A stretch of DNA of 35,852 nt from Euryarchaeota archaeon UBA501 (GCA_002505685.1 DAVT01000079.1:1-35852), one strand, 5' to 3'; positions 6,097-21,346 are shown, counted from the first letter of the stretch. The notes: a model not told the origin generated them from the sequence alone. Made by a program: numbers and translations.

Positions 6097-6569
6097 TGTC
6101 TGCTGGAGAAATGCGTCGAGTAACTGCAATCAATAACGGTACAGTGATTGATCACATTCCAGCAGGTTCAGCCCTAGTTGTATTGCAAATGCTTGGGATT
6201 TCAGATGACCGTGCCTCTCCGATTAGCCTAGTGATGAATGTCCCCTCATCAAAACATGGCCGTAAGGACATCATCAAGGTAGAAGACCGTGAACTAACAC
6301 AAGATGAACTTGACCGTTTGGCACTAATTGCTCCGAAAGCAAGCGTCGCCATCATTCGTTCATACGCAGTCGCTGAAAAGCGCGAAGTCACGATAGGAAC
6401 TGAGTTGGTTAATGTAGCAAGTTGCACATTCTCAAATTGTATTACCATCAATCCTAGAGAGCCACAAGACCACCGATTGAATGTCGTGAAGACCGACCCA
6501 CTAGAATTACGTTGTAGATACTGTGGCCGGCCACAAGTCATGAGTGAATTGATTGGCAACCTGATTTAG
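6096..6569 (+). CDS. pyrI: Aspartate carbamoyltransferase regulatory subunit
   Basis: INNGTVIDHIP N-domain. C-terminal Zn site C-x4-C ... C-x2-C (CTFSNC ... CRYCG). ATG 6096 overlaps the pyrB TGA by one nt (TGATG). The track's 6093 start is TTG. Confidence 0.93.
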   Translation: MSAGEMRRVTAINNGTVIDHIPAGSALVVLQMLGISDDRASPISLVMNVPSSKHGRKDIIKVEDRELTQDELDRLALIAPKASVAIIRSYAVAEKREVTIGTELVNVASCTFSNCITINPREPQDHRLNVVKTDPLELRCRYCGRPQVMSELIGNLI

Positions 6570-6571
6570 GT

Positions 6572-7582
6572 TTAGATTTCAGCCAACCACTGCTGGAATG
6601 TACAAGATTGACAAACGGCCTGGCTGGAAGGTGCCCCACATTTTTCACACTCAGTAGCTTCCCCCGGTTTCCACGATGCAGGAGGGTTTTCGGTCGAAGC
6701 CCACAACTCCCGAATAGCGTCCATTGAATGGACTAGGCCGTGCATTGTACCTGGATTCGAGGCTTCCATTTCGGCAAGGTAAGCTCGATGCTTCTGTCTT
6801 AGGGCACCAGTAGCATGTGGGCAATCATCGTGATGAATCGGTAATTTCGCCCCAATTGCATAGGCATGGATTTCCCTTTCTGGAATCCATCTGAGTGGCA
6901 CAATTCTAGGGGGTAACCCCACTATCGGAAAAGTGGTGTGCGGGGCCAATCTGATGATTCTCTCCATTTCTCCCTTGCCCAGATTCATCAATACAGATTG
7001 AGCCGTGTCATCCAAATTGTGCCCCAAAGCCATCCACTTGGCTCCAACCCTTTCTGCAAGAGCATTCAGACCTTGTCGCCGGAATACACCACAGTACGAA
7101 CAAGGCTTCATTCCTCTAGCTGCTTTGTGGTTTCCTGCCATCAAAGGCATCGAATTGACCACATTATCCATCCGCTCAAAACCGAGTTCAGGATAAGTTA
7201 TACTTTCAAATCTCAAGCCATGGGATTGGGCCAATTCACGAGCGCATTCCATCGATGGAGACCGATAGCCATCAATTCCTTCATCCACACAACCACACAC
7301 CAATTCGACATCACGCCTCGCTCCAACAATTTTGATCATCATGTCCAATAGCACAGCGGAATCTTTTCCGCCAGAAATACAAACCAAAATCACCGCAGGC
7401 TGCCCGGATTCATCACGCGCGTCAGAGGGTAAATTCAGTTGATTCCGAAGAGACTTGGACACACGCTTGCGAATGGATTTAGCCAAATGGGCTTGACAAA
7501 GATGCTGTCCACTATAGATTTGGTGAATTACTGCAGGATGGCTACATCGACTGCACGATTGCACATCTAACGAGAGGGACAC
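6572..7582 (-). CDS. PP-loop ATPase, TtuA/NcsA(Ncs6)-type tRNA 2-thiouridine synthetase
   Basis: 336-aa ORF. PP-loop CISGGKDSAVLL. Candidate Fe-S ligands KPCSYCG plus HHDDCPH. N-terminal (CSRCSHP...LCQAH) and C-terminal (CEKCGAP...CQSC) zinc fingers. GTG start. Confidence 0.85.
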   Translation of the reverse strand: MSLSLDVQSCSRCSHPAVIHQIYSGQHLCQAHLAKSIRKRVSKSLRNQLNLPSDARDESGQPAVILVCISGGKDSAVLLDMMIKIVGARRDVELVCGCVDEGIDGYRSPSMECARELAQSHGLRFESITYPELGFERMDNVVNSMPLMAGNHKAARGMKPCSYCGVFRRQGLNALAERVGAKWMALGHNLDDTAQSVLMNLGKGEMERIIRLAPHTTFPIVGLPPRIVPLRWIPEREIHAYAIGAKLPIHHDDCPHATGALRQKHRAYLAEMEASNPGTMHGLVHSMDAIRELWASTENPPASWKPGEATECEKCGAPSSQAVCQSCTFQQWLAEI

Positions 7583-8170: not shown

Positions 8171-11100
8171 TTGTTTAATCTACCACCAGGAAATACCGTT
8201 GACTCGGAAGCTGACTTGAGCGTAGGGCAAAATCAAATGCCCTTTGAAACGGGAGTCATATCTCACTACAAACCTAGGGCGAAAACCGCTTGTGCACACC
8301 GTTTGGTTTACGGTGGAAGGGTCGTGGGTTGGCTTGCTGAGTCTGATGCAAAGCAAACCTTTGTCACAGGAGAAGGCGGGCGTGTTCGCTTGCTTGAATT
8401 ATCGGATGCACACGAATTGAGTGCAAGAGGATCGACATGGAGTGTGAATCAATTTACTGAGGTGGCACGCCGAATTCCAGAGGCCTTTTCAGATCCCTCC
8501 GACGTCGCCTCTCTTCTTGCCCAAGGAGCAGCTGCGCTTCCCATCGATACCACAGACCTCGCTCTATTGGTGGACCGCCTCGTTGAATCAGATGAGGTCA
8601 TTGGAGCTTTGGCGTTTGAGGACGGAGTCGTAATCCATTCTAGTGGAAATTTACCATCCACACCGGAGGATTTGGCCACATTAGGGCAAGAACACCTCCG
8701 GGGAATAGCTGCGAAATTCGATCAACAAGAGTCCCTATCAGCCAATCTACGCCTTGAAGGGGGACAATTGATGCTAACAGAAGCAGGTCAAGCATCTGTT
8801 GCGATTTGGTGTAGCCATGGTTCGGATGCCCATGCGGCACTCGCGAACGCCGCCAGCCTCGTTGGTTCAATCGATGATGAGCAAATGACTGAATTCGAAG
8901 ATCTGCCTGAAGGATTCGTTACCAAAGAGTCCAAGTCGGGTATCGATCAACTGATTTCTCATTTGAGGGCAGCCCATGAAGACCAATTGACAGGGTACAT
9001 AAAGTCAGTCTCTGAGTCGGATGAGCCAGTATATGTGGTACTTGTGAATGGGGTGCCCAGCGGAATTCGGGGGTCGTCAGAGTCATCCCTTTCTGATGCT
9101 ATTCATGCGATGACAACTTCCTCTCGTCGATTGTTAACCCACCGTCTTGAACGGCGGGCAAGACTAGGTTTGGTGGGTTCCACAGTGGAAGATTTCTCAT
9201 TGGCCCACCTCACAGATGCAATTGCAAACTGTCGGACTCGTTCCGATGACCGAAAAAAGTTGATTTCCGGGCGATTGGATGCTCTGTTCGGTTTTGATTT
9301 AGGTTTGGAATCCATGGAATCCGGCCGTTCTACATGGAAGATGTTGGAGACTGGTTCGCCCACAGCGACGTTGATGCCGGTTTCCAGTTCAAAAGTTCTA
9401 ACACCTGCTGGAGGGGAACTCAAAAAACGCCTTGAGCAACTTGAGCACACTCAGATTTCCCTTGAACGAGAAAAGGGCCGTCTAGAGCGTGAACTCGAGG
9501 AAGCACGCGCTTCCAGAGACGATGCTCGAGAACAAATGCATGATTTGGAAGCCTCATTGACAGAAGCCAGAGATGAGCGAAGTGAACTTCACCGGGAAAT
9601 AGATGATATGACCAGCAAAGTTCGCACTGCAGAAGCAGGCATGGATGAAGCGAGTGCACTATCCAATCGTCTCACCAAACGAGTTTCTGAACTTGAACAC
9701 ATGGTGGAGAAAAGAGCCGAAGAATTGGCGAGTGCATTAGGAGAGTTCGATTCAAGAGAAGCTTTGCTTGGAGATTTGCGAGAATTGACTACTCAGGAAG
9801 CCACCGTCAAATCCGAATTGAGTTCCGCTGAAACCCGTTTGGATGAAATTCGTAAAGCCATTGATCACGATGAACGATTACAGCGAGTGCTTACAGAGCA
9901 AGTGAATGCACAACGTGACCGACACCGAACAGGTCAAGGAGAACTAGATGAGGTAGAGCGTCGAATAGAGAATCAGCGAGCAGAATTGGCAGATTTGGAG
10001 GCAGAAGGTCACGCACATCGCCGATTGATGGAAGAGGAGAGGGGGCGAATTCTTGATTCTGAGAGAAAATCGACAATCATGCAATCCGAATTAAGGGAAA
10101 TGATGGAAGAGCGTCGATTGTTGCTACGAGAATTGGGCGATCTCGATGCTAGAAAAGCACAATCTGAAACAGAACTTAGGATGTTGTTAGAACAGGCAGA
10201 AGATATTCAAGAGGCCCACGAAATGGCACTACTTGATCTACAAGAGGCGGATAGAATTCGTGCAAGATTGGCTGAAGAACCACTGGCACAAGCCTTGCTA
10301 GGAGACGAACGTGGGCTTTCGAGTTTAGAACCAGTCTTGGATCGAATGGCCAATGCCAGAAGCCGAGGATATAGTATCGTTCTGTTAGATCGAGCGGTTG
10401 AGCGAGCCTTGTCTATCATTCAACACAGTGTTGATGAGGTTGCCAAAACCCCCCGACATTTACTATCTCTTGAAGTCATGGAGCTGTTGGAGAGACAGGC
10501 TCCAGAGACAGCCTCAACAGTTCGTGGTTTGACACGCTGGTCTGTTCAATCTAGATTAGAACATCAACTCGCTGAAACAGTACAACACGTCGTCATTGAT
10601 TTGGAAGGCCTACTCGATGAATACGAAAGATCAGTGACCATGTTGGCTCAATTGCAGGAAGTCTTGCGGGGTCTCGTTGATTTAGGCCTCCCCTCAGAAG
10701 ATATCAAGCCACTTGAGCGGTTTAGCCACATGCCTGAAGCACTACCATACATTTCCGTAGAAGCACGCAGATTGATTCAGCGTTCCTTGGATGAAATTTA
10801 CCTAGATGCAGATCGAAGAACTGCAGGGGATGCAGTAGGTTTGGCAGAAACAGTAGAAGTTCTAGAATCTCTACTCCGCAGACTCGACGTGGCAGGTCTA
10901 ACCGGGGAAGAACCTTCGGGGGCATTATGGTCATTCCAGCGATCTGGAAGCCTGCCTTTCGAAATCGATGGATTGGCTCGTCACGAACGCCCTGAAATCA
11001 ATAGCGAAGCAGTCCGGCACATGAATCCAGTAGAGGATGTCGCTGATGCGAGCCCAATGTCCTCAGAGATTATCGCGCCAAGCGCTCCTGCTGCGGCTCC

Positions 11101-11401
11101 AACTCCGGAAGCCAGTTCGGCACCTGCTTCAAATTCAACTTGGCAACCGATTGAGCCAGCTTCTGAAACCGATGGGGTGGATATTTCAGCAAGAATTTCT
11201 GCGGGTTTAACTCCCGCAGATGTTACTGGTAATCCAGATGAATCCGCCCTTATGTCAGATATCGATGTAGCACTTTCTGAGGTAGATTCCGCGGCTAGAA
11301 CCAGAGAAGATACCGAGAATGGAGTTGCTCCCCCAGCCGATCCTGTGCGACGCGACGCTCTAGATGACTTGGAGCGCGAATTGTCGGACTTGGACATGTA
11401 G
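8171..11401 (+). CDS. Large cytoplasmic scaffold-like protein: internal Roadblock-like domain, PATAN/DUF4388-like region, ~290-aa coiled coil, helical domain, acidic P/A/S-rich tail
   Basis: 1076-aa ORF. The TTG start at 8171 is preceded by GAGGTG (8159-8164), which overlaps the last codons of the Roadblock gene. The alternative ATG is at 8237. See findings for domain coordinates. I saw no hydrophobic TM segment and no Walker A motif. Confidence 0.8.
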   Translation: MFNLPPGNTVDSEADLSVGQNQMPFETGVISHYKPRAKTACAHRLVYGGRVVGWLAESDAKQTFVTGEGGRVRLLELSDAHELSARGSTWSVNQFTEVARRIPEAFSDPSDVASLLAQGAAALPIDTTDLALLVDRLVESDEVIGALAFEDGVVIHSSGNLPSTPEDLATLGQEHLRGIAAKFDQQESLSANLRLEGGQLMLTEAGQASVAIWCSHGSDAHAALANAASLVGSIDDEQMTEFEDLPEGFVTKESKSGIDQLISHLRAAHEDQLTGYIKSVSESDEPVYVVLVNGVPSGIRGSSESSLSDAIHAMTTSSRRLLTHRLERRARLGLVGSTVEDFSLAHLTDAIANCRTRSDDRKKLISGRLDALFGFDLGLESMESGRSTWKMLETGSPTATLMPVSSSKVLTPAGGELKKRLEQLEHTQISLEREKGRLERELEEARASRDDAREQMHDLEASLTEARDERSELHREIDDMTSKVRTAEAGMDEASALSNRLTKRVSELEHMVEKRAEELASALGEFDSREALLGDLRELTTQEATVKSELSSAETRLDEIRKAIDHDERLQRVLTEQVNAQRDRHRTGQGELDEVERRIENQRAELADLEAEGHAHRRLMEEERGRILDSERKSTIMQSELREMMEERRLLLRELGDLDARKAQSETELRMLLEQAEDIQEAHEMALLDLQEADRIRARLAEEPLAQALLGDERGLSSLEPVLDRMANARSRGYSIVLLDRAVERALSIIQHSVDEVAKTPRHLLSLEVMELLERQAPETASTVRGLTRWSVQSRLEHQLAETVQHVVIDLEGLLDEYERSVTMLAQLQEVLRGLVDLGLPSEDIKPLERFSHMPEALPYISVEARRLIQRSLDEIYLDADRRTAGDAVGLAETVEVLESLLRRLDVAGLTGEEPSGALWSFQRSGSLPFEIDGLARHERPEINSEAVRHMNPVEDVADASPMSSEIIAPSAPAAAPTPEASSAPASNSTWQPIEPASETDGVDISARISAGLTPADVTGNPDESALMSDIDVALSEVDSAARTREDTENGVAPPADPVRRDALDDLERELSDLDM

Positions 11402-11409
11402 GTGAACAC

Positions 11410-11670
11410 ATGGAGAAAGAGGGAACTGAAACCCTCATGGGTCGTATAGAAACTCATGGAGACAAGTTTCCTTGGTACCTTGAAAAAGCCAGTTTCTTGC
11501 TAACTATCGGAGCCGCAATTCTTGTTGGACAATGGATGTGGTTGGAATCAGGATGGAGCGACCAATTACTGTGGCCTGCTACGGTTTGTGTGATGCCTCT
11601 AACGGCCATAATCACAGCAGAAATCATCTCGCGTGTAATTCAAAGATTCCATATTGCCCAGAGCAATTAA
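11410..11670 (+). CDS. Small 2-TM membrane protein
   Basis: 86-aa ORF. The ATG is 8 nt after the upstream stop in the context TAGGTGAACACATG, where the stop is fused to an SD. Two hydrophobic helices (ASFLLTIGAAILVGQWMWL; LLWPATVCVMPLTAIITAEII). Confidence 0.55.
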   Translation: MEKEGTETLMGRIETHGDKFPWYLEKASFLLTIGAAILVGQWMWLESGWSDQLLWPATVCVMPLTAIITAEIISRVIQRFHIAQSN

Positions 11671-12915
11671 TCACGGATTTGTTTTGACCTTGCTCAGTGC
11701 TGATTCAATCAAACCGGATACTCTTTGCCAAGGTACAATGTATCTCAATCCAGCAACAAATGTCAGGAATAGCATTGCTGAAATGACCTTTCCATAGGTT
11801 AGGCGAAGTTCCAGTGATTCCTTGACTTGTCCACTCCATTGCCCAGATCCAGTCCAACTGACAACATCGATAATCAAATCATCAAACTTCAACGCAAGCA
11901 TTGTGACAAATGCAACTGAAAAGATGACAACTACCGTATGCTGCATGTGGGTATTGAGGATACTTTGGAATTGCCTTACATACTCTGGATCTTTTTTGCA
12001 AGATTCTGGCAATCTGAATGCATATTCAAGGAAACGAATTGTGGCCTGAGCGGTTTCAGAAAATACCATCAGCAGTACTGCAACCAACAGGAGTTCCCAA
12101 ACTTGACTTGAGATCAAACCTCCTAGAGTGTCAGCCTCCCCAATCTGGGTGGGCAATGGGTTCAGGCCAGGTGAATGCGGATCCGATACACTGGCAAGTT
12201 GACTTACTACCCCTTCATAGGAAAGCAGAGCATAGATTCCGAGATAGACGAGCATGTAGGCCATTGACCAATTGACCATTCTCTTTGAGAGACCCCAAAT
12301 TCCCATCAATCCAAACAATACCGGAGCGAGGAACAACAGGACAATCAGTAACTGAATGTATACAGATAATGGCCAAACCAAATGATTGGCATGATTCATC
12401 GAATCATCTGCATTTCCAAATGGTAAGTATAAATCAAAACTCATAATCATTCCAAATGTCCAAGTTAGAAGGAACATTCCTGCCAAGAATAGAATCATCG
12501 ATCCAAGGAGGCCAAGAGTGATTTTTCGACGTCTTGCAGGAGGCTGGAAATTCAGTGCAACCCAAGCCCCAGCAATCGCCATACTGAGTAGAATTGGGAC
12601 AAAATAGCGTCCATCTCCTTCGTTGCCCTGCCCTGTTACCCAATCTGGTAAGGGAAGACCATCCAAACCTCCACCATCGGTCAATGTGTCTTCTATTTGA
12701 TCGAGCGTTAGGGTGTGATCAAGAGCAGGGCACCAAGCTCCAGTGCTTGCATAATCCGGGTGGCAGTGACCAAACACACGTGTCATCGTTAGGAACAACC
12801 AAATCAATGCCAATGTAGCCACAAGTTGAAGACAAACAACACGCCATTCTTTGCGCAAAACACGCAAATGTAGACTGGTCATCCCTTCCTCTTGTTGTGC
12901 TACATCATCTGCCAT
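11671..12915 (-). CDS. Polytopic membrane protein (about 8 TM), last gene of the DUF4350-like/DUF58 run
   Basis: 414-aa ORF. The ATG is preceded by TAGGGAGGTGAGAATATG, i.e. the DUF58 stop plus an SD. Many hydrophobic helices (VVCLQLVATLALIWLFL, VPILLSMAIAGAWVAL, LGLLGSMILFLAGMFLL, VYIQLLIVLLFLAPVLFGLMGIWGL, etc.). Confidence 0.75.
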   Translation of the reverse strand: MADDVAQQEEGMTSLHLRVLRKEWRVVCLQLVATLALIWLFLTMTRVFGHCHPDYASTGAWCPALDHTLTLDQIEDTLTDGGGLDGLPLPDWVTGQGNEGDGRYFVPILLSMAIAGAWVALNFQPPARRRKITLGLLGSMILFLAGMFLLTWTFGMIMSFDLYLPFGNADDSMNHANHLVWPLSVYIQLLIVLLFLAPVLFGLMGIWGLSKRMVNWSMAYMLVYLGIYALLSYEGVVSQLASVSDPHSPGLNPLPTQIGEADTLGGLISSQVWELLLVAVLLMVFSETAQATIRFLEYAFRLPESCKKDPEYVRQFQSILNTHMQHTVVVIFSVAFVTMLALKFDDLIIDVVSWTGSGQWSGQVKESLELRLTYGKVISAMLFLTFVAGLRYIVPWQRVSGLIESALSKVKTNP

Positions 12916-12927
12916 ATTCTCACCTCC

Positions 12928-14178
12928 CTACATCTTCACCTGCAACAATGCTTGACTCAATTCAACATCAGGCATCCAATCAATGACGCGAGCACCATAA
13001 CCGGCAACCGCAGAAAGCCGATTTTGCCGCTCAAGCTTCATGACTTCGTATGACATTCTAGGGATTCGGCTTACCAATCTCTCATAGTCTATACTAGATG
13101 GGCTAAGGATAACCACTTCATGCCCCCTTCCAGCCAAATCTCGGATCGCGTGAGGTACAGTCCCATCACCTTCTAGACTTGAGATTACGAATACGGGGCT
13201 CCCTCGGCTAAATCTTGGTGCCAATGAATTGGTTACTGCTTGTAGTGGCATATCTCCCTTTGGCGCAACCCCTGCCAAACTGGATAGGACCTTGAAGTAC
13301 TGTTTATCTCCACCGTCCGCAGGTAAATATGACAACTTATCATCGTATACTGCAAGTGCCACAGAATCTCTCCGCTTGATGAAGTAGGAAGCCAAACTCG
13401 CTGCTGCCACAGTCCCCATTTCCAGTGGATTCTTCAGTACAGTTCCAATTCGGCTGATGTCTCTAGAATCGAGTAATATGAACACATCCGTAACCGCATC
13501 CCTACACTTTTCATTGACCATCATAACTCCAGTTCGAGCAAATGCCTTCCAATTGATAATCTTGAATGGATCACCGGGTACGTATTCTCTTAGTGAATAG
13601 AATTCAGAACCGGGCCCCGGAGTTCTCAGTGTCATTGCTCCAGTGTACATCTTTGGCGTCCGACTTCGAATCATTGCTTCTTCAATTTCACGTACTTGTG
13701 GGAATACGATTAGCCCCGAGCGGTGGTCAATATACATCTCTTGGCTGAAGAGGTTGAATGTGTTGCGATAGCGAACCGAGACGGGTCCAAATGAATAATG
13801 GCCACGAAGAGGGCAACGCAAAACATAGCGAATCCTTGTTGTTTCACCGGGTCCAAGGTTGACTCGCATGTAATTGAGTCCACTACGCAATTTCATTTCG
13901 TGTGGTACGTTATCGAAAATCTCCAATTGTTGTGTACGTCTGAATGAACTATTGGTAATTGCCAATTCAACGTACAAATCGTCTCCTTTGTACAAATTGT
14001 CAGCAGACAATGTACGGACGACCTCCAACTGACCATGTCCAACAACCCATGAATTGATAGCAAGGAAGGCAATGAACATCAAGCCAAGGATCATCAATTG
14101 GAAGTTGGCGATCATCATTCCAATCAAGACCAAAGAGATACCAGAGGTCATGAGTAGAGCTGCCTTACGTGTCCACAT
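12928..14178 (-). CDS. DUF58 family protein (vWA-like, normally MoxR-associated)
   Basis: 416-aa ORF. N-terminal double TM, then the signature EFYSLREYVPGDPFKIINWKAFARTG followed by VFILLDSRD. The ATG is preceded by TAAGGAGGTGAGAGAATATG. Confidence 0.85.
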   Translation of the reverse strand: MWTRKAALLMTSGISLVLIGMMIANFQLMILGLMFIAFLAINSWVVGHGQLEVVRTLSADNLYKGDDLYVELAITNSSFRRTQQLEIFDNVPHEMKLRSGLNYMRVNLGPGETTRIRYVLRCPLRGHYSFGPVSVRYRNTFNLFSQEMYIDHRSGLIVFPQVREIEEAMIRSRTPKMYTGAMTLRTPGPGSEFYSLREYVPGDPFKIINWKAFARTGVMMVNEKCRDAVTDVFILLDSRDISRIGTVLKNPLEMGTVAAASLASYFIKRRDSVALAVYDDKLSYLPADGGDKQYFKVLSSLAGVAPKGDMPLQAVTNSLAPRFSRGSPVFVISSLEGDGTVPHAIRDLAGRGHEVVILSPSSIDYERLVSRIPRMSYEVMKLERQNRLSAVAGYGARVIDWMPDVELSQALLQVKM

Positions 14179-14192
14179 ATTCTCTCACCTCC

Positions 14193-15851
14193 TTACTTCC
14201 GTCCCCACATTTTGACTCGTTTGACAACGGCCACAAGTTGCTCCAAGCTGTAATTTCGATCTTCAAATACGAATTTAACCAGTACGGGGTCACTAATCAT
14301 CTTCTGCAATTCACGGGCAGGTAGAGCATCAAACTCATCTCGAGTCAGTGAATTCAAATTCCTAACTCTAGACAATAATACTTGTTTTACTTTATTTGGA
14401 CGTTGATAATATCCATATCGCCTAGCATCTCCAAATCCATAGTAGATGATGCTGAAAACGTGCCGCCATGGTTCAGGATCTACCTTCTTGATGATGACGG
14501 CCTCGAATGTGATAAATAGAGCCAAAAACAGGAAGAGCATTGCCATCCAATCATTCGTGAAGTACACCAAAATGTAGTAAATCAGACTGTAGGTATCACT
14601 GAGGGCATTGGTTTGCTGATGTCGACTTTCGTCAAAGATAACTTGCTTACCCTGAGCAGAAGTTCCATTGTCAGCATCGTTTGCAAGAAGAGATTCTGCG
14701 ATGATGTCAAGGACCCAACGACGATTGTCATTGCTGGGCATTACATTACCATTGAGTGCCCCATACCTTTCCGCATTGGTATTCTCCCAATCATAAATGG
14801 CATTCATCAGGGCTGAACCATCACTGACGAAAATAGCGCGACCCATTGGTGTGCCACCAGGTTCCTCTTCGCAATCGCGGTTGTCACACACCTTAATCGC
14901 CATAGTGAATGGGCCTGCCTCATCACTTTCGATTCCTCCACCCTCAAATCCAACATCTCCTTCGCCATCATCATTCGTGTCGAGATAAGAGTCCTGACTG
15001 GAACGTCCCCAAGCGTATATGTTGTCGCTAGGCTCTTCCGCATCTTCCTTGTCAAATGCTGATGGGGTATTCAGTAGGACGTTGTAATTCGTACTGAAGT
15101 TCCAGAATTGGGTGCCCTCTGAATCGGTTTCTATGTGGTGGGCACATAGACCGGCTTCAGAGAAAGTAGGTACGGTCCCATCGGGTGCCCCAGCGATTCG
15201 GTCAAGACGATCGATGACTCCATCATTGTCAGAATCTCCAAAGCATGGATGTTGAATGGAACGGTCTAATCCGGTGTAGTCGTATGGATTGGAAGAGTTC
15301 ATCCACACATATTCGTAACCCAATTCGCGTGCCCAAGCATCTTCATCATACAATTGATGTCCACTATATCCTAAGCCGAAAACATCTGCTAGACTAGCGG
15401 CATATCCAAAATCATCCATCACCAGCAAAGTTCCTCCAGCAGCAAAGTACTCGATGATTGCATTGATTTCGGTAGCAGTGTATCCCTCACTTTCACTCCA
15501 TTGAACCACACTTGCATCTCCCGTAAAACGGGGCAAAGAAATGGTATCCTGTTCAACACCAGTGACAATGAAAACGGTATCTTCAGGGTTTTCTATTTCA
15601 CCCAGCAGAACTGGGCTTGAAATCATGCTTGTGGTATCCACGCCCATGTTTTTCAAATCAGCACGGAATGCGGACAAATCATCCCAATCATCATCGTAAG
15701 CTGAGAGGTGTGGGTCACTGTCGACTAGGTATGAACTAACAATACTCAGCAACAACAGAGCAAGCACAGAATAGAACGCCAACATCAAACCGACTCTACG
15801 CGTTTTCCGCGATTTCAGCACAGTTTTGATGTCCACTGAGCCAATTTTCAT
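14193..15851 (-). CDS. DUF4350/GldG-like bitopic membrane protein with a large acidic ectodomain
   Basis: 552-aa ORF. N-terminal TM (GLMLAFYSVLALLLLSIVSS). The block VFIVTGVEQ...AIIEYFAAGGTLLVMDDFGY is typical of the DUF4350 class-I-amidotransferase-like fold. Second TM near aa 430-455, then a ~95-aa basic cytoplasmic tail. The family call rests on my memory of the motif plus the adjacent DUF58. Confidence 0.65.
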   Translation of the reverse strand: MKIGSVDIKTVLKSRKTRRVGLMLAFYSVLALLLLSIVSSYLVDSDPHLSAYDDDWDDLSAFRADLKNMGVDTTSMISSPVLLGEIENPEDTVFIVTGVEQDTISLPRFTGDASVVQWSESEGYTATEINAIIEYFAAGGTLLVMDDFGYAASLADVFGLGYSGHQLYDEDAWARELGYEYVWMNSSNPYDYTGLDRSIQHPCFGDSDNDGVIDRLDRIAGAPDGTVPTFSEAGLCAHHIETDSEGTQFWNFSTNYNVLLNTPSAFDKEDAEEPSDNIYAWGRSSQDSYLDTNDDGEGDVGFEGGGIESDEAGPFTMAIKVCDNRDCEEEPGGTPMGRAIFVSDGSALMNAIYDWENTNAERYGALNGNVMPSNDNRRWVLDIIAESLLANDADNGTSAQGKQVIFDESRHQQTNALSDTYSLIYYILVYFTNDWMAMLFLFLALFITFEAVIIKKVDPEPWRHVFSIIYYGFGDARRYGYYQRPNKVKQVLLSRVRNLNSLTRDEFDALPARELQKMISDPVLVKFVFEDRNYSLEQLVAVVKRVKMWGRK

Positions 15852-15957
15852 GCTGACAAGCTCCCCACATCCATAGGATGTGCAGCGGCGAGACGCTGAA
15901 CCAAGCCTTAAGACGGTTTGGGGGCGATGGGAGAGACAGTATCAGCCGAATTTTACA

Positions 15958-16210: not shown

Positions 16211-18436
16211 TCATACACTTTCAATGCCCATCAAGGTATCCGTCTTGCGACGGATGCTCTCAAGGCCACTGGTTAACATTGCTTCCAACTTTGAATAGTA
16301 CTCAATCATGTCAGGCGTGATGGTTGGACGCACGCGATCTATGGCCTGCTCGAAGTGTTTCTTTGATACAGATTTCTTCTCAGCCCGCATGGCAATCAGT
16401 GCAGCCTCTCGACACACCGCTTCGACATCGGCGCCGGTGAAATTCTGCATATTCTCTGCCAGACTATCCAAGTTGAATTTGCCCAATGGCATATCTTTAG
16501 CATGAATCTGGATGATTTTCCTTAGGCTTGCTTGGTCGGGTGGCGGAATGTGCATGACTCGCTCAAATCGACCACTCCTGAGTAAAGCGGGGTCAATCAT
16601 TTCTGGTCGGTTGGTTGCTGCAATCACAATGACGCCTTCCATCGATTCAATGCCATCCATGCTAGAGAGCATTTGATTTACCACACGGTTAGATACATCG
16701 CTACCTTCGCCTGAGTTTGAAGTTCTTGCGCCAGCAATTGACTCAAACTCATCTAGGAAAATGATACTTGGACTGGCTTGTTTTGCTTTCTTGAACACTT
16801 CTCTGATAGCTTTCTCGGATTCACCAACCCATTTGGAAATTAATTCAGGTCCTTTGACTGTGATAAAATTGGCCTTTGCTTCGTTGGCAATCGCTTTCGC
16901 AATTAGTGTCTTTCCAGTGCCTGGTGCTCCAAATAGTACAATTCCTCGAGGGGGTTTAATTCCAAAGTGTTCGAATCTATCAGGCATTGTCAGTGGCCAC
17001 TCAACACTCTCTTTGAGTCGTTCTTTCACTTCATCAAGACCACCAACATCAGCCCAAGAAACTTCAGGAACTTCAACATAAATTTCTCGAAGAGCACTTG
17101 GTTCAATATCTCTGATGGCCAGTTTGAAATCTCCCATTTGGACTTCCATCTTCTCGAGGACTTCAGGTGGGATTTCGTCTTGGTCTAAATCAATATCAGG
17201 AAGGTAACGACGCAGAGCTTTCATCGCTGCTTCTCGGGTTAGACTCATGATATCTGCCCCCACGAATCCATATGAATTTTCCAAAATCCAATCCATATCA
17301 AAATCATCCGAAATAGGCATACCTCGTGTGTGGATATTGACTATCTCTCGACGTCCATTCTTATCTGGTACACCAATCTCCAACTCACGGTCAAATCGCC
17401 CTGGTCGTCTCAACGCTTGGTCAATGGCATCGGGCCGATTTGTAGCTCCGATGACAACGACATTGTCTCGACCCTGCATTCCATCCATCAATGTCAATAG
17501 TTGAGCGACGACTCGTCGTTCAACTTCCCCGGAAACATCTTCACGCTTGGGTGCGATTGAATCCAACTCATCGACGAATATAATCGCAGGAGAATTTGAG
17601 GCAGCATCATCAAAAATTTCACGCAACTGTTTCTCGGATTCACCATAATACTTAGAGATAATTTCGGGACCGTTGATGCTGGTGAAATGTGCATTTGTTT
17701 CATTGGCAACAGCCTTCGCAATCATGGTCTTACCCGTTCCGGGGGGGCCGTGTAACAACACACCTTTCGGTGGATCGATTCCAAGTCTGCGGAAGAGAAT
17801 AGGGTGCTTCAATGGCAATTCTATCATTTCACGAACCTTGAGAAGTTGGTCCCCCAACCCCCCAATATCTTCGTACATTATCGAAGAAACCTCTCCGGGT
17901 TCTTCATCCTCAACCATTTCTTCCTTGATGACGATTTCAGTGTCGGGCAGAACTCGAACAATGCCTTTGGGTTTGGTAGAGACAATCGCGAAGGGTAATG
18001 CTTCAGCAAATAGAGTCATTCCGGGGATAAATATGCGGTCACCAGCGACAACTGGTCGCTTGTTGAGACCTCGACGTGCGAATCCCTCAATTCCTGAACC
18101 AAACTTCACCTTCTGCTGCTTGGCCATAACTGGACTTAGAACGAGTCTTTCGCACTCCTTAGTTTCGACTTTTTTGATGGTAACACGGTCACCCAAACTA
18201 ACGCCCGCATTCTTGCGAATGATACCGTCGATTCGAATGACTCCAAGGTTCGCGTCTTCGGGTCTGCATCTCCATACGATGGCCGCGGTATTACGCTCCC
18301 CTGCAATTTCGATAACATCCCCGGGTTTTAGCCCCAAATCGTTGTCAAAGGGCACTCTTGCTCGGCCGTGACCCACATCACTTGGGATTGCTTTCGCTAC
18401 ACGTAGGGATAGTGTCTTGTCTTCTTCATCAGCCAT
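16211..18436 (-). CDS. cdc48: Cdc48/VAT/p97-type AAA+ ATPase (N domain + D1 + D2)
   Basis: 741 aa. N domain [18 protein letters not shown]...GDVIEIAG. D1 has Walker A GPPGTGKT and Walker [10 protein letters not shown]2 has Walker A GAPGTGKT and Walker [19 protein letters not shown] lies upstream of the ATG. Confidence 0.95.
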
Positions 18437-20219: not shown

Positions 20220-20774
20220 ATGGAGATTACGCGTGAAGCACTTCGGCTTGCCCTGTACATCACCGGGCCCTTGGTTTTAGCATCATACGTGTTCGGAATT
20301 TCACGAATGGAGAGCCCGATGGATTTGTGGGGTGGCATTCCTGAATCATGGCGTACACTCAATGTAACATGTATGTTCGTTTCAGCAACTGGTTTTCTCA
20401 TCATGTGGTGGTTTTTCCTGTATCGATGGGACGCTGCAGTCGTAGAAACAGTTCAGTGGCCATGGGGCGAAGGGGATAGCGGTGGTCATTCAAGACTGAT
20501 GCTTGCATTCTTGTTAGTCACAATCCCCTCAATGTTTTGGTTAGAATTGACTGCCCTCCACATTCGTATCGATGAAAGTTGGAGCCAATGGCTTGTGATT
20601 GGATGTTTGTGGCTGGTTTGTCTAGGCAACATTTTGCTTGGTTTATTTGCTTGGGGTGCATACAAACAAGAAGTCTCTTCCGATACGATTTGGCCAGTGG
20701 TCGGAGCCACTATGTTGGGTATTCAAGTGATCATCAATGATGGTATATTGTGGAATTTGAAGTATCCATGGTGA
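20220..20774 (+). CDS. Integral membrane protein (about 5 TM), unknown function
   Basis: 184-aa ORF starting 11 nt after the ALDH stop. W-rich hydrophobic helices (FLIMWWFFLY, LMLAFLLVTIPSMFWL, LVIGCLWLVCLGNILLGLFAW). Confidence 0.6.
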   Translation: MEITREALRLALYITGPLVLASYVFGISRMESPMDLWGGIPESWRTLNVTCMFVSATGFLIMWWFFLYRWDAAVVETVQWPWGEGDSGGHSRLMLAFLLVTIPSMFWLELTALHIRIDESWSQWLVIGCLWLVCLGNILLGLFAWGAYKQEVSSDTIWPVVGATMLGIQVIINDGILWNLKYPW

Positions 20775-20833
20775 AAGCACCTCAAAATTTTGCCAGATTA
20801 TGTGTTATAAGCCCCCTACGCGTGCGCACCAAC

Positions 20834-21346
20834 ATGAGTGGACAACTCAGTGATGATGGCAATTTTATGTGGAACGGAAATGAATGGGTTCCAGTCGAAC
20901 AAGCACCTGCACCAGTGGCAGCAACACCAGCAATGGCCGAGCCCGTAGCAGCAGCACCAGCAATGGCCGAACCAGTTGCAGCAGCGCCTGCCATGGCCGA
21001 GCCCGTAGCAGCAGCACCAGCAATGGCAGCATCTGGTGGAGATTGGCGAATTTTGATGGCCGAGAGTGGTTTGCAGATGTTCTTCATCAAGATTGGTTGT
21101 TTCTTGGTGAACTGTGTCACACTTTTCTTGGCAGTACCATGGACGACTACAATGTACTACACCAACTGGACAGAGCGAGTTGTACTTGGTGGTAGAAAAT
21201 TGAGGTTTACTGGAAGCGCTGGGGGATTTTTCATGGTCTGGCTCAAAACATTGGGACTTAGCATGATTACTCTCTCAATCTATTATTGGATTTGGGGTAG
21301 AAAGAACGTCGCTCGTTGGGTAGATTCAAACATCCAATGGGCATGA
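20834..21346 (+). CDS. Membrane protein with a small N-terminal W-x-G-x-x-W module, a tandem PAMAEPVAAA linker and a C-terminal 2-TM module (DUF898/YjgN-like unit?)
   Basis: I prefer ATG 20834 (MSGQLSDDGNFMWNGNEWVPVEQ), because the track start at 20750 overlaps the previous gene. TM helices FFIKIGCFLVNCVTLFLAV and FFMVWLKTLGLSMITLSIYYWIW. The DUF898 resemblance is a weak recollection. Confidence 0.55.
   Translation: MSGQLSDDGNFMWNGNEWVPVEQAPAPVAATPAMAEPVAAAPAMAEPVAAAPAMAEPVAAAPAMAASGGDWRILMAESGLQMFFIKIGCFLVNCVTLFLAVPWTTTMYYTNWTERVVLGGRKLRFTGSAGGFFMVWLKTLGLSMITLSIYYWIWGRKNVARWVDSNIQWA
20927..21030 (+). repeat. In-frame 30-bp tandem repeat, about 3.4 copies (ccagcaatggccgagcccgtagcagcagca)
   Basis: Read directly. 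Units lie at 20927-20956, 20957-20986 and 20987-21016, plus a partial fourth. Units 1 and 3 differ at only 2 positions. The repeat encodes (PAMAEPVAAA)n. Confidence 0.9.

Follow-up and report, generated by a model that had tools for sequence, protein, structure and literature searches.

Bacterial MoxR-DUF58 operons (Bat operons, with MoxR of the MRP subfamily) are envelope-associated and encode a DUF58 protein with a transmembrane (TM) hairpin and a vWA-like domain. The DUF58 and MoxR genes together make up one of the most widespread uncharacterised envelope-associated gene pairs of bacteria and archaea. In archaea, a complex for secretion or membrane remodelling, built from arCOG01314 (DUF4350), the MoxR ATPase COG0714 and a vWA protein (arCOG02742/02747), has been predicted, with TON_1832 as its named representative (Makarova, Galperin and Koonin 2015, PMC5898192, section 3.2). 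In the literature that we searched, no experimental test of this archaeal DUF4350-MoxR-vWA system was found. Here we analysed 35,852 nucleotides (nt) of DNA from Euryarchaeota archaeon UBA501 (GCA_002505685.1, DAVT01000079.1:1-35852), and refer to this whole stretch as the window. It carries three consecutive minus-strand genes (11671-15851) for a DUF4350-like protein, a DUF58 protein and a polytopic membrane protein, which we call the trio. A preliminary description, made from the sequence of the window, had remarked on the missing MoxR gene but had missed that the gene set is already described in PMC5898192. We give a probability of about 0.6 to the reading that the trio is a paralogue, specific to the archaeal order Poseidoniales and without MoxR, of the arCOG01314 cluster, with products that would form one membrane complex; the use of MoxR in trans, the last step of this reading, is rated lower.

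A conserved three-gene operon without MoxR

The trio and its two junctions lie in the window as follows.

14193-15851, minus strand: first gene of the trio, DUF4350-like (arCOG01314-like) protein, 552 amino acids (aa)
14179-14192, minus strand: 14-nt DUF4350-like/DUF58 junction, TAA-GGAGGTGAGAGAAT-ATG, with GGAGGTGA at 14185-14192, 6 nt before the DUF58 ATG
12928-14178, minus strand: middle gene of the trio, DUF58 protein, 416 aa
12916-12927, minus strand: 12-nt DUF58/membrane-gene junction, TAG-GGAGGTGAGAAT-ATG, with GGAGGTGA at 12920-12927, 4 nt before the ATG
11671-12915, minus strand: third gene of the trio, polytopic membrane protein, 414 aa, about 8 TM segments

The three open reading frames (ORFs) had exactly the coordinates first given for them, and both junctions were nearly identical, as had been described. 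A perfect GGAGGTGA, which we take to be the complement of the 3' end of 16S rRNA, was present in each junction. The whole window holds 3 copies, a count that by itself is not significant (3 matches were reached in 13 of 100 shuffles). The near-identity of the junctions is due to strong Shine-Dalgarno (SD) sites of operon-internal genes and not to a repeat element. The trio is a three-gene operon. Marine metatranscriptomes showed transcription of all three genes, with small RNA contigs covering them and cdc48, and two of these contigs (12896-13054 and 12915-13075) bridged the DUF58/membrane-gene junction.

We searched the window for MoxR both by profile and by translated alignment. No AAA_3 match was found among the window ORFs of at least 150 aa, where the double-ring Cdc48 was the sole AAA+ protein, and tblastn of Poseidoniales MoxR against all six frames showed no relic of the gene. 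The absence of a MoxR-size AAA+ ORF from the window, as first reported, was confirmed by both searches. The sole tblastn match covered 26 aa with 50% identity to the Walker-A region of a MoxR from the MoxR-bearing cluster described below (E=0.008; window 12642-12719, plus strand). This match is antisense to the membrane gene and has no GK[ST] residues, and we judged it to be due to chance.

The same arrangement was found in 95 MoxR-less trio loci orthologous to the window, which we term type A (80 loci on metagenome contigs and 15 others). MoxR was absent from all 80 metagenome loci, which include 959 kb of flanks, and also from the 15 other loci. The preliminary description had reasoned that an adjacent MoxR gene in close relatives would mean a local rearrangement in the window. 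Since such a gene was found in 0 of 95 type-A loci, the MoxR-less state is fixed and old and is not a rearrangement of the window contig.

The gene order of type A was also constant. The DUF4350-like gene was directly upstream of DUF58 in 63 of 63 metagenome loci, with a gap of -16 to +16 nt, and a homologue of the membrane gene was directly downstream in 73 of 73 loci, with gaps of -59 to +16 nt that were mostly 1-16 nt. In the fetched loci the order was a divergent aldehyde dehydrogenase gene, cdc48, a PRC-barrel gene, the DUF4350-like gene, DUF58 and the membrane gene, followed by a small ORF and a coiled-coil gene of 1060-1076 aa, both convergent. The window DUF58 had hundreds of relatives at 75-99% identity, and the named ones were Candidatus Poseidoniales, Thalassarchaeaceae or Poseidoniaceae; in a library clustered at 50% identity, only Poseidoniales-type sequences were at least 65% identical to it, and the next reached at most 43%. 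The window belongs to a Poseidoniales (Marine Group II) archaeon. Type A was also present in Poseidoniaceae and Poseidonia, on closed-size contigs of 1.9-2.1 Mb.

It is hardly conceivable, given these results, that the trio is a decaying remnant, or an artefact of mis-assembly or deletion in the window contig. The missing gene is all that speaks for such a reading. The frames are intact, the ribosome-binding sites are strong and all three genes are transcribed, which refutes this reading. Against it stand also the identical architecture of 95 independent loci from many assemblies and the high identity of DUF58 across the order. The DUF58 protein is strongly constrained, with more than 160 invariant columns.

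MoxR-bearing paralogues in related genomes

We scanned species-representative genomes with an alignment of distant DUF58 relatives and recovered 80 loci, 4 of type A and 76 others. All 76 non-type-A loci (DUF58 identity at most 47%) showed the order DUF4350-like, MoxR, DUF58 wherever the flank reached. The MoxR of these clusters was confirmed by Pfam (AAA_3, E=2.7e-63, plus AAA_lid_2), and a polytopic membrane gene came immediately after DUF58 in every outgroup locus examined. Poseidoniales genomes accounted for 56 of the 76 loci, and we term their paralogous DUF4350-MoxR-DUF58-TM cluster type B; the remaining loci were from other Thermoplasmatota. Type B was highly conserved and was found on contigs of about 1.6 Mb, and all type-B loci with a family name were Thalassarchaeaceae (Marine Group IIb).

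The DUF58 proteins of type A and type B were 42% identical over their full length (E=4e-120). Neighbour-joining trees placed type-A DUF58 as sister to type B and did not resolve the DUF4350-like proteins. We claim no more from this than that the duplication predates the split of the two Poseidoniales families. Type A is a duplicate without its MoxR gene, and the complete version is elsewhere in related genomes. MoxR is not missing from the lineage, as at least Thalassarchaeaceae keep the full paralogue at another locus.

The Walker A motif of type-B MoxR looks odd (ED[YF]PG[LT]AK[TS]). We considered an inactivated type-B MoxR and rejected it, because the unusual motif was conserved in all 70 of the 70 MoxRs of these clusters and is normal for the family.

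Several observations concern the surroundings and labels of the MoxR-bearing loci. Type B was preceded by a conserved acidic protein of 318 aa with an N-terminal signal, a C-terminal TM segment and no Pfam match (6184-7143 in locus L019; 3187-4143 in L087-L106). The Ig-like secreted component predicted in 2015 may be this protein, of which no equivalent was found in type A. Upstream of its gene were xanthine-dehydrogenase-like genes. In the Thermoplasmatota outside Poseidoniales, genes for two permeases of MacB/FtsX type and for an ABC ATPase came after the DUF4350-MoxR-DUF58-TM unit (L064, 12372-15663; likewise L063, L067, L071, L072, L074, L077-L080 and L082), neighbours that echo the relationship of the ectodomain to GldG/ABC_transp_aux. 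A complete Poseidoniales type-B locus (L047, JBJKZL010000002.1) was in a metagenome-assembled genome labelled Neomarinimicrobiota, and two near-identical MoxRs (P0288 and P0365) were labelled Gammaproteobacteria and Deltaproteobacteria. These labels are probably binning or labelling errors.

Among the 90% cluster representatives and the few members listed, no contig or genome locus-tag prefix was common to type A and type B, a result that weighs on neither side. Both types were present in one sequencing run, X7, which has a single-organism label and 1.45 Mb of contigs. Its type-B contig (17.2 kb, depth 47.1) was 99.97% identical to a type-B locus. Its type-A contig (10.5 kb, depth 43.5) was colinear with the window from cdc48 through the membrane gene, with matches to cdc48, to the conserved tail of the DUF4350-like gene and to the membrane gene, and no compared locus was closer to it than about 81%. 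The compared spacings were 517/517, 2294/2345 and 2622/2628 nt, which leaves no room for a MoxR gene. The evidence that one genome carries both clusters is good, though indirect. Of the two explanations first offered, that MoxR is encoded elsewhere holds in relatives, by the paralogous cluster and by X7.

The three proteins, a proposed complex and its possible ATPase

Taken alone, the DUF4350-like protein matched Pfam DUF4350 (PF14258) with E=0.0025 and 18.6 bits, below the cut-off of 30.4, and it did not itself reach the ABC_transp_aux threshold. The DUF4350/GldG-like assignment holds despite the sub-threshold score because of evidence from the family. All 42 aligned family members matched DUF4350 (best 9.8e-15) and 32 of them matched ABC_transp_aux/GldG-like. 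Comparison of profiles by hhalign joined type A to type B over the full length (99.9%, E=1.5e-36 over 461 columns) and to the other Thermoplasmatota (100%, E=4.8e-46), the two alignments covering 461-490 columns, and orthologues are named 'DUF4350 domain-containing protein' at NCBI. The initial placement of 14193-15851 in this family, which a failure to match would have overturned, is borne out by the profile-profile and family matches.

Hydropathy showed an N-terminal signal-anchor TM segment at about residues 20-38 and a second one at about 427-445. The ectodomain between them (residues 45-425) has a computed isoelectric point of 4.05, in agreement with the large acidic ectodomain first proposed. 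A conserved basic tail of about 100 aa follows the second TM segment; the invariant residues of the family cluster at this segment and in the tail, which holds most of them. This architecture of an N-terminal TM segment, a large ectodomain and a C-terminal TM segment, together with full-length homology to proteins that match DUF4350, agrees with DUF4350/arCOG01314. Alignment-free folding gave an unusable model with a predicted local distance difference test score (pLDDT) of 37.7, and profile searches of the PDB returned noise only, besides a faint IFT52/GIFT hint.

The DUF58 protein matched Pfam PF01882 above the cut-off of 23.4 (E=2.1e-20, 73.3 bits), and the string REYVPGDPFKIINWKAFARTG that had been taken as the DUF58 signature was present. 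A TM hairpin at its N terminus is followed by an Ig-like beta-sandwich domain and then by a vWA-like alpha/beta domain, which contains the motif REYVPGDPFKIINWK. The AlphaFold2 model, made from a shallow alignment, was poor overall (pLDDT 54.5); its TM hairpin (4-46) and beta-sandwich (51-150) were moderately confident and were followed by beta-alpha alternation. The globular part of the protein is predicted to be cytoplasmic.

No match to the third protein was found in Pfam, NCBIfam or PADLOC. The earlier figure of 8 TM segments is approximate, as 7 segments passed the hydropathy threshold and the total is estimated at about 8-9. By hhalign the protein matched the 311-aa membrane protein of type B (91.8%, E=7e-7) over 131 colinear C-terminal columns, and the type-B protein matched its equivalent in other Thermoplasmatota (97.9%, E=3.6e-13). 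From this profile match and its position, the third gene is probably a divergent counterpart of gene four in the canonical cluster. The PADLOC search also returned no defence-system match for the trio, the PRC-barrel protein or type-B MoxR, and a defence-system reading of the trio was rejected.

Among the more distant relatives, about 12 proteins of 730-758 aa were DUF4350-DUF58 fusions (P0191, P0211, P0225, P0238, P0254 and P0266 among them). They resemble the trio in the two modules and their order, in the lack of an intervening ATPase, and in the motif W-R-x-H-x-F after the second TM segment. They differ from it in that each is one polypeptide whose ectodomain and tail are shorter, and identity is only about 30%. 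The fusion proteins came from Ala-rich, probably high-GC organisms. Such fusions support a direct functional link between DUF4350 and DUF58, and they fit a topology that puts both the tail of DUF4350 and the globular part of DUF58 on the cytoplasmic side. Fusion and fixed adjacency are what speaks for a putative physical complex of the three proteins.

In the complex that we propose, the DUF4350-like protein would display its GldG/GIFT-like acidic ectodomain outside the cell and reach the cytoplasm with its basic tail. The TM hairpin of DUF58 would keep it at the inner side of the membrane, where it would act as a vWA-type adaptor, and the polytopic protein would be the membrane core. The three would form one membrane complex that couples the extracellular GldG/GIFT-like domain to the cytoplasmic vWA-type adaptor. 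Its remodelling or assembly in type B may be the task of the adjacent MoxR. We suggest tentatively, at somewhat less than even odds, that in genomes with both clusters the single MoxR of type B also works in trans with type A, which would be its second adaptor and membrane module.

Type A may also be a self-sufficient membrane complex, structural or receptor-like, with MoxR an accessory assembly factor of the ancestral system; we regard such an ATPase-independent function as possible, at about one chance in three. The loss of MoxR is ancient and fixed in 95 of 95 loci, type A extends to Poseidoniaceae and Poseidonia while the family-named type-B loci do not, and the two modules have diverged in composition, type A being without the 318-aa secreted protein. 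On the other side, DUF58 was beside MoxR in all 76 of the nearest relatives and type-A DUF58 is under very strong constraint. The vWA partners of MoxR in RavA-ViaA, CbbQ-CbbO and NorQ-NorD are ATPase adaptors, which also counts against independence from the ATPase. If the trio were such a self-sufficient core, Marine Group II would run one copy without any AAA+ partner, Poseidoniaceae might have no MoxR gene, and MoxR would be accessory, not obligate, in DUF58-type systems. Between the two, use of the type-B MoxR in trans is only slightly favoured.

Several points weigh against the paralogue reading with MoxR in trans. The presence of type B in the window's own genome is inferred from relatives, and a Poseidoniaceae label was absent from all 56 type-B loci, though type A occurs in that family; if Poseidoniaceae have no MoxR at all, use in trans is not the general mechanism. 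The label of X7 is coded, and the run could be a low-complexity mixture, although the depths match. Of the three homology links, that of the third gene, where hydrophobic proteins were matched by profile and by position, is the weakest, and both structure predictions (DUF4350-like and DUF58) were poor. Topology, complex formation and adaptor function are inferences for every member of the system.

The remaining candidate for the missing ATPase lies upstream of the trio, where the window holds the following features.

16211-18436, minus strand: cdc48, with Pfam CDC48_N and two AAA domains; context of the trio only
16200 (ATG) to 15958 (stop), minus strand: PRC-barrel gene, 80 aa, Pfam PRC; context of the trio only
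15906-15918, minus strand: AACCGTCTTAAGG, a non-coding motif conserved in the spacer (106 nt) before the trio; candidate promoter or operator

The preliminary description had suggested that Cdc48, encoded two genes upstream, might serve the trio in place of MoxR. This idea found no specific support, and we consider it very improbable, far behind the other two. In its favour, every type-A locus that could be examined for it (47 of 47) had cdc48 and then the PRC-barrel gene upstream of the trio and on its strand. This synteny is unspecific, since the whole neighbourhood is conserved, and the divergent aldehyde dehydrogenase gene and the convergent 1076-aa coiled-coil gene are kept equally well; as synteny with cdc48 is no stronger than with unrelated neighbours, the idea is unsupported. 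The cdc48 gene, moreover, is SD-coupled to the PRC-barrel gene and not to the trio. It ends about 8 nt upstream of the PRC-barrel gene, GAGGTGA lies 6 nt before the PRC-barrel ATG, and an RNA contig (16172-16429) bridges the cdc48/PRC junction. No metatranscriptome contig crossed the spacer that separates the trio from the PRC-barrel gene and is 52-106 nt long across type-A loci. The two genes, kept in all type-A loci, are a coupled pair of their own. Cdc48 is a housekeeping unfoldase in archaea, and we know of no link between DUF58 and Cdc48; we counted both points against it. Small PRC-barrel proteins have reportedly been implicated in archaeal cell division.

The spacer motif AACCGTCTTAAGG was unique in the window at 0 mismatches. 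Of 15 type-A loci, 13 had it in the same spacer, and loci other than type A gave 0 matches over 1.50 Mb. The motif is a candidate for the trio's own promoter or operator.

Two plus-strand genes converge on the trio from the other end. They encode a coiled-coil protein of 1076 aa (8171-11401) with only weak SMC/Rad50-like coiled-coil matches and an 86-aa protein with two TM segments (11410-11670), and both were kept in most type-A loci. Further away, the window has an additional block of genes relative to loci L001-L005 (20220-27587), between the aldehyde dehydrogenase and succinate dehydrogenase genes. It encodes a 184-aa membrane protein, an epimerase fusion, an amine oxidase, proteins of 679 and 305 aa and a DUF898-like protein with a tandem PAMAEPVAAA repeat (20750-21346).

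Comparison with known systems

The closest described system is the arCOG01314 complex. The trio shares with it a DUF4350/GldG-like protein whose ectodomain is anchored to the membrane, with a signal at the N terminus and a TM segment at the C terminus. Also shared are an adjacent Ig plus vWA-like (DUF58) gene in the same operon, found so in 63 of 63 loci, and a further membrane protein in the operon. Type B and the clusters of other Thermoplasmatota match the published description fully, MoxR included. In contrast, no type-A locus has MoxR in cis or an Ig-like or S-layer-like secreted component, and the membrane partner of the trio has about 8 TM segments where PMC5898192 lists 2- or 4-TM proteins.

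Two other systems are more distant. As in the bacterial MoxR-DUF58 operons, compared here from general knowledge, the trio DUF58 combines a TM hairpin at its N terminus with a vWA-like domain. However, the trio has no MoxR and no BatA/BatB-type vWA or TPR proteins; the gene upstream of the window DUF58 is DUF4350-like and not AAA_3, and DUF58 is partnered by a DUF4350 protein and by a polytopic protein of no described family. With the GldG/ABC_transp_aux proteins of gliding motility (GldAFG), the ectodomain has a distant relationship at domain level, but neither the window nor any other type-A locus has an ABC transporter next to the trio.

What is new is a MoxR-less, order-wide paralogue of a predicted system. 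This is an incremental addition and not a new kind of system. It occurs in Poseidoniales, which are among the most abundant planktonic archaea of the surface ocean. Two paralogous modules in one genome, one with and one without the ATPase, are a natural experiment on the need of a vWA adaptor for MoxR, and the comparison of type A with type B gives a handle for locating the MoxR-binding surface.

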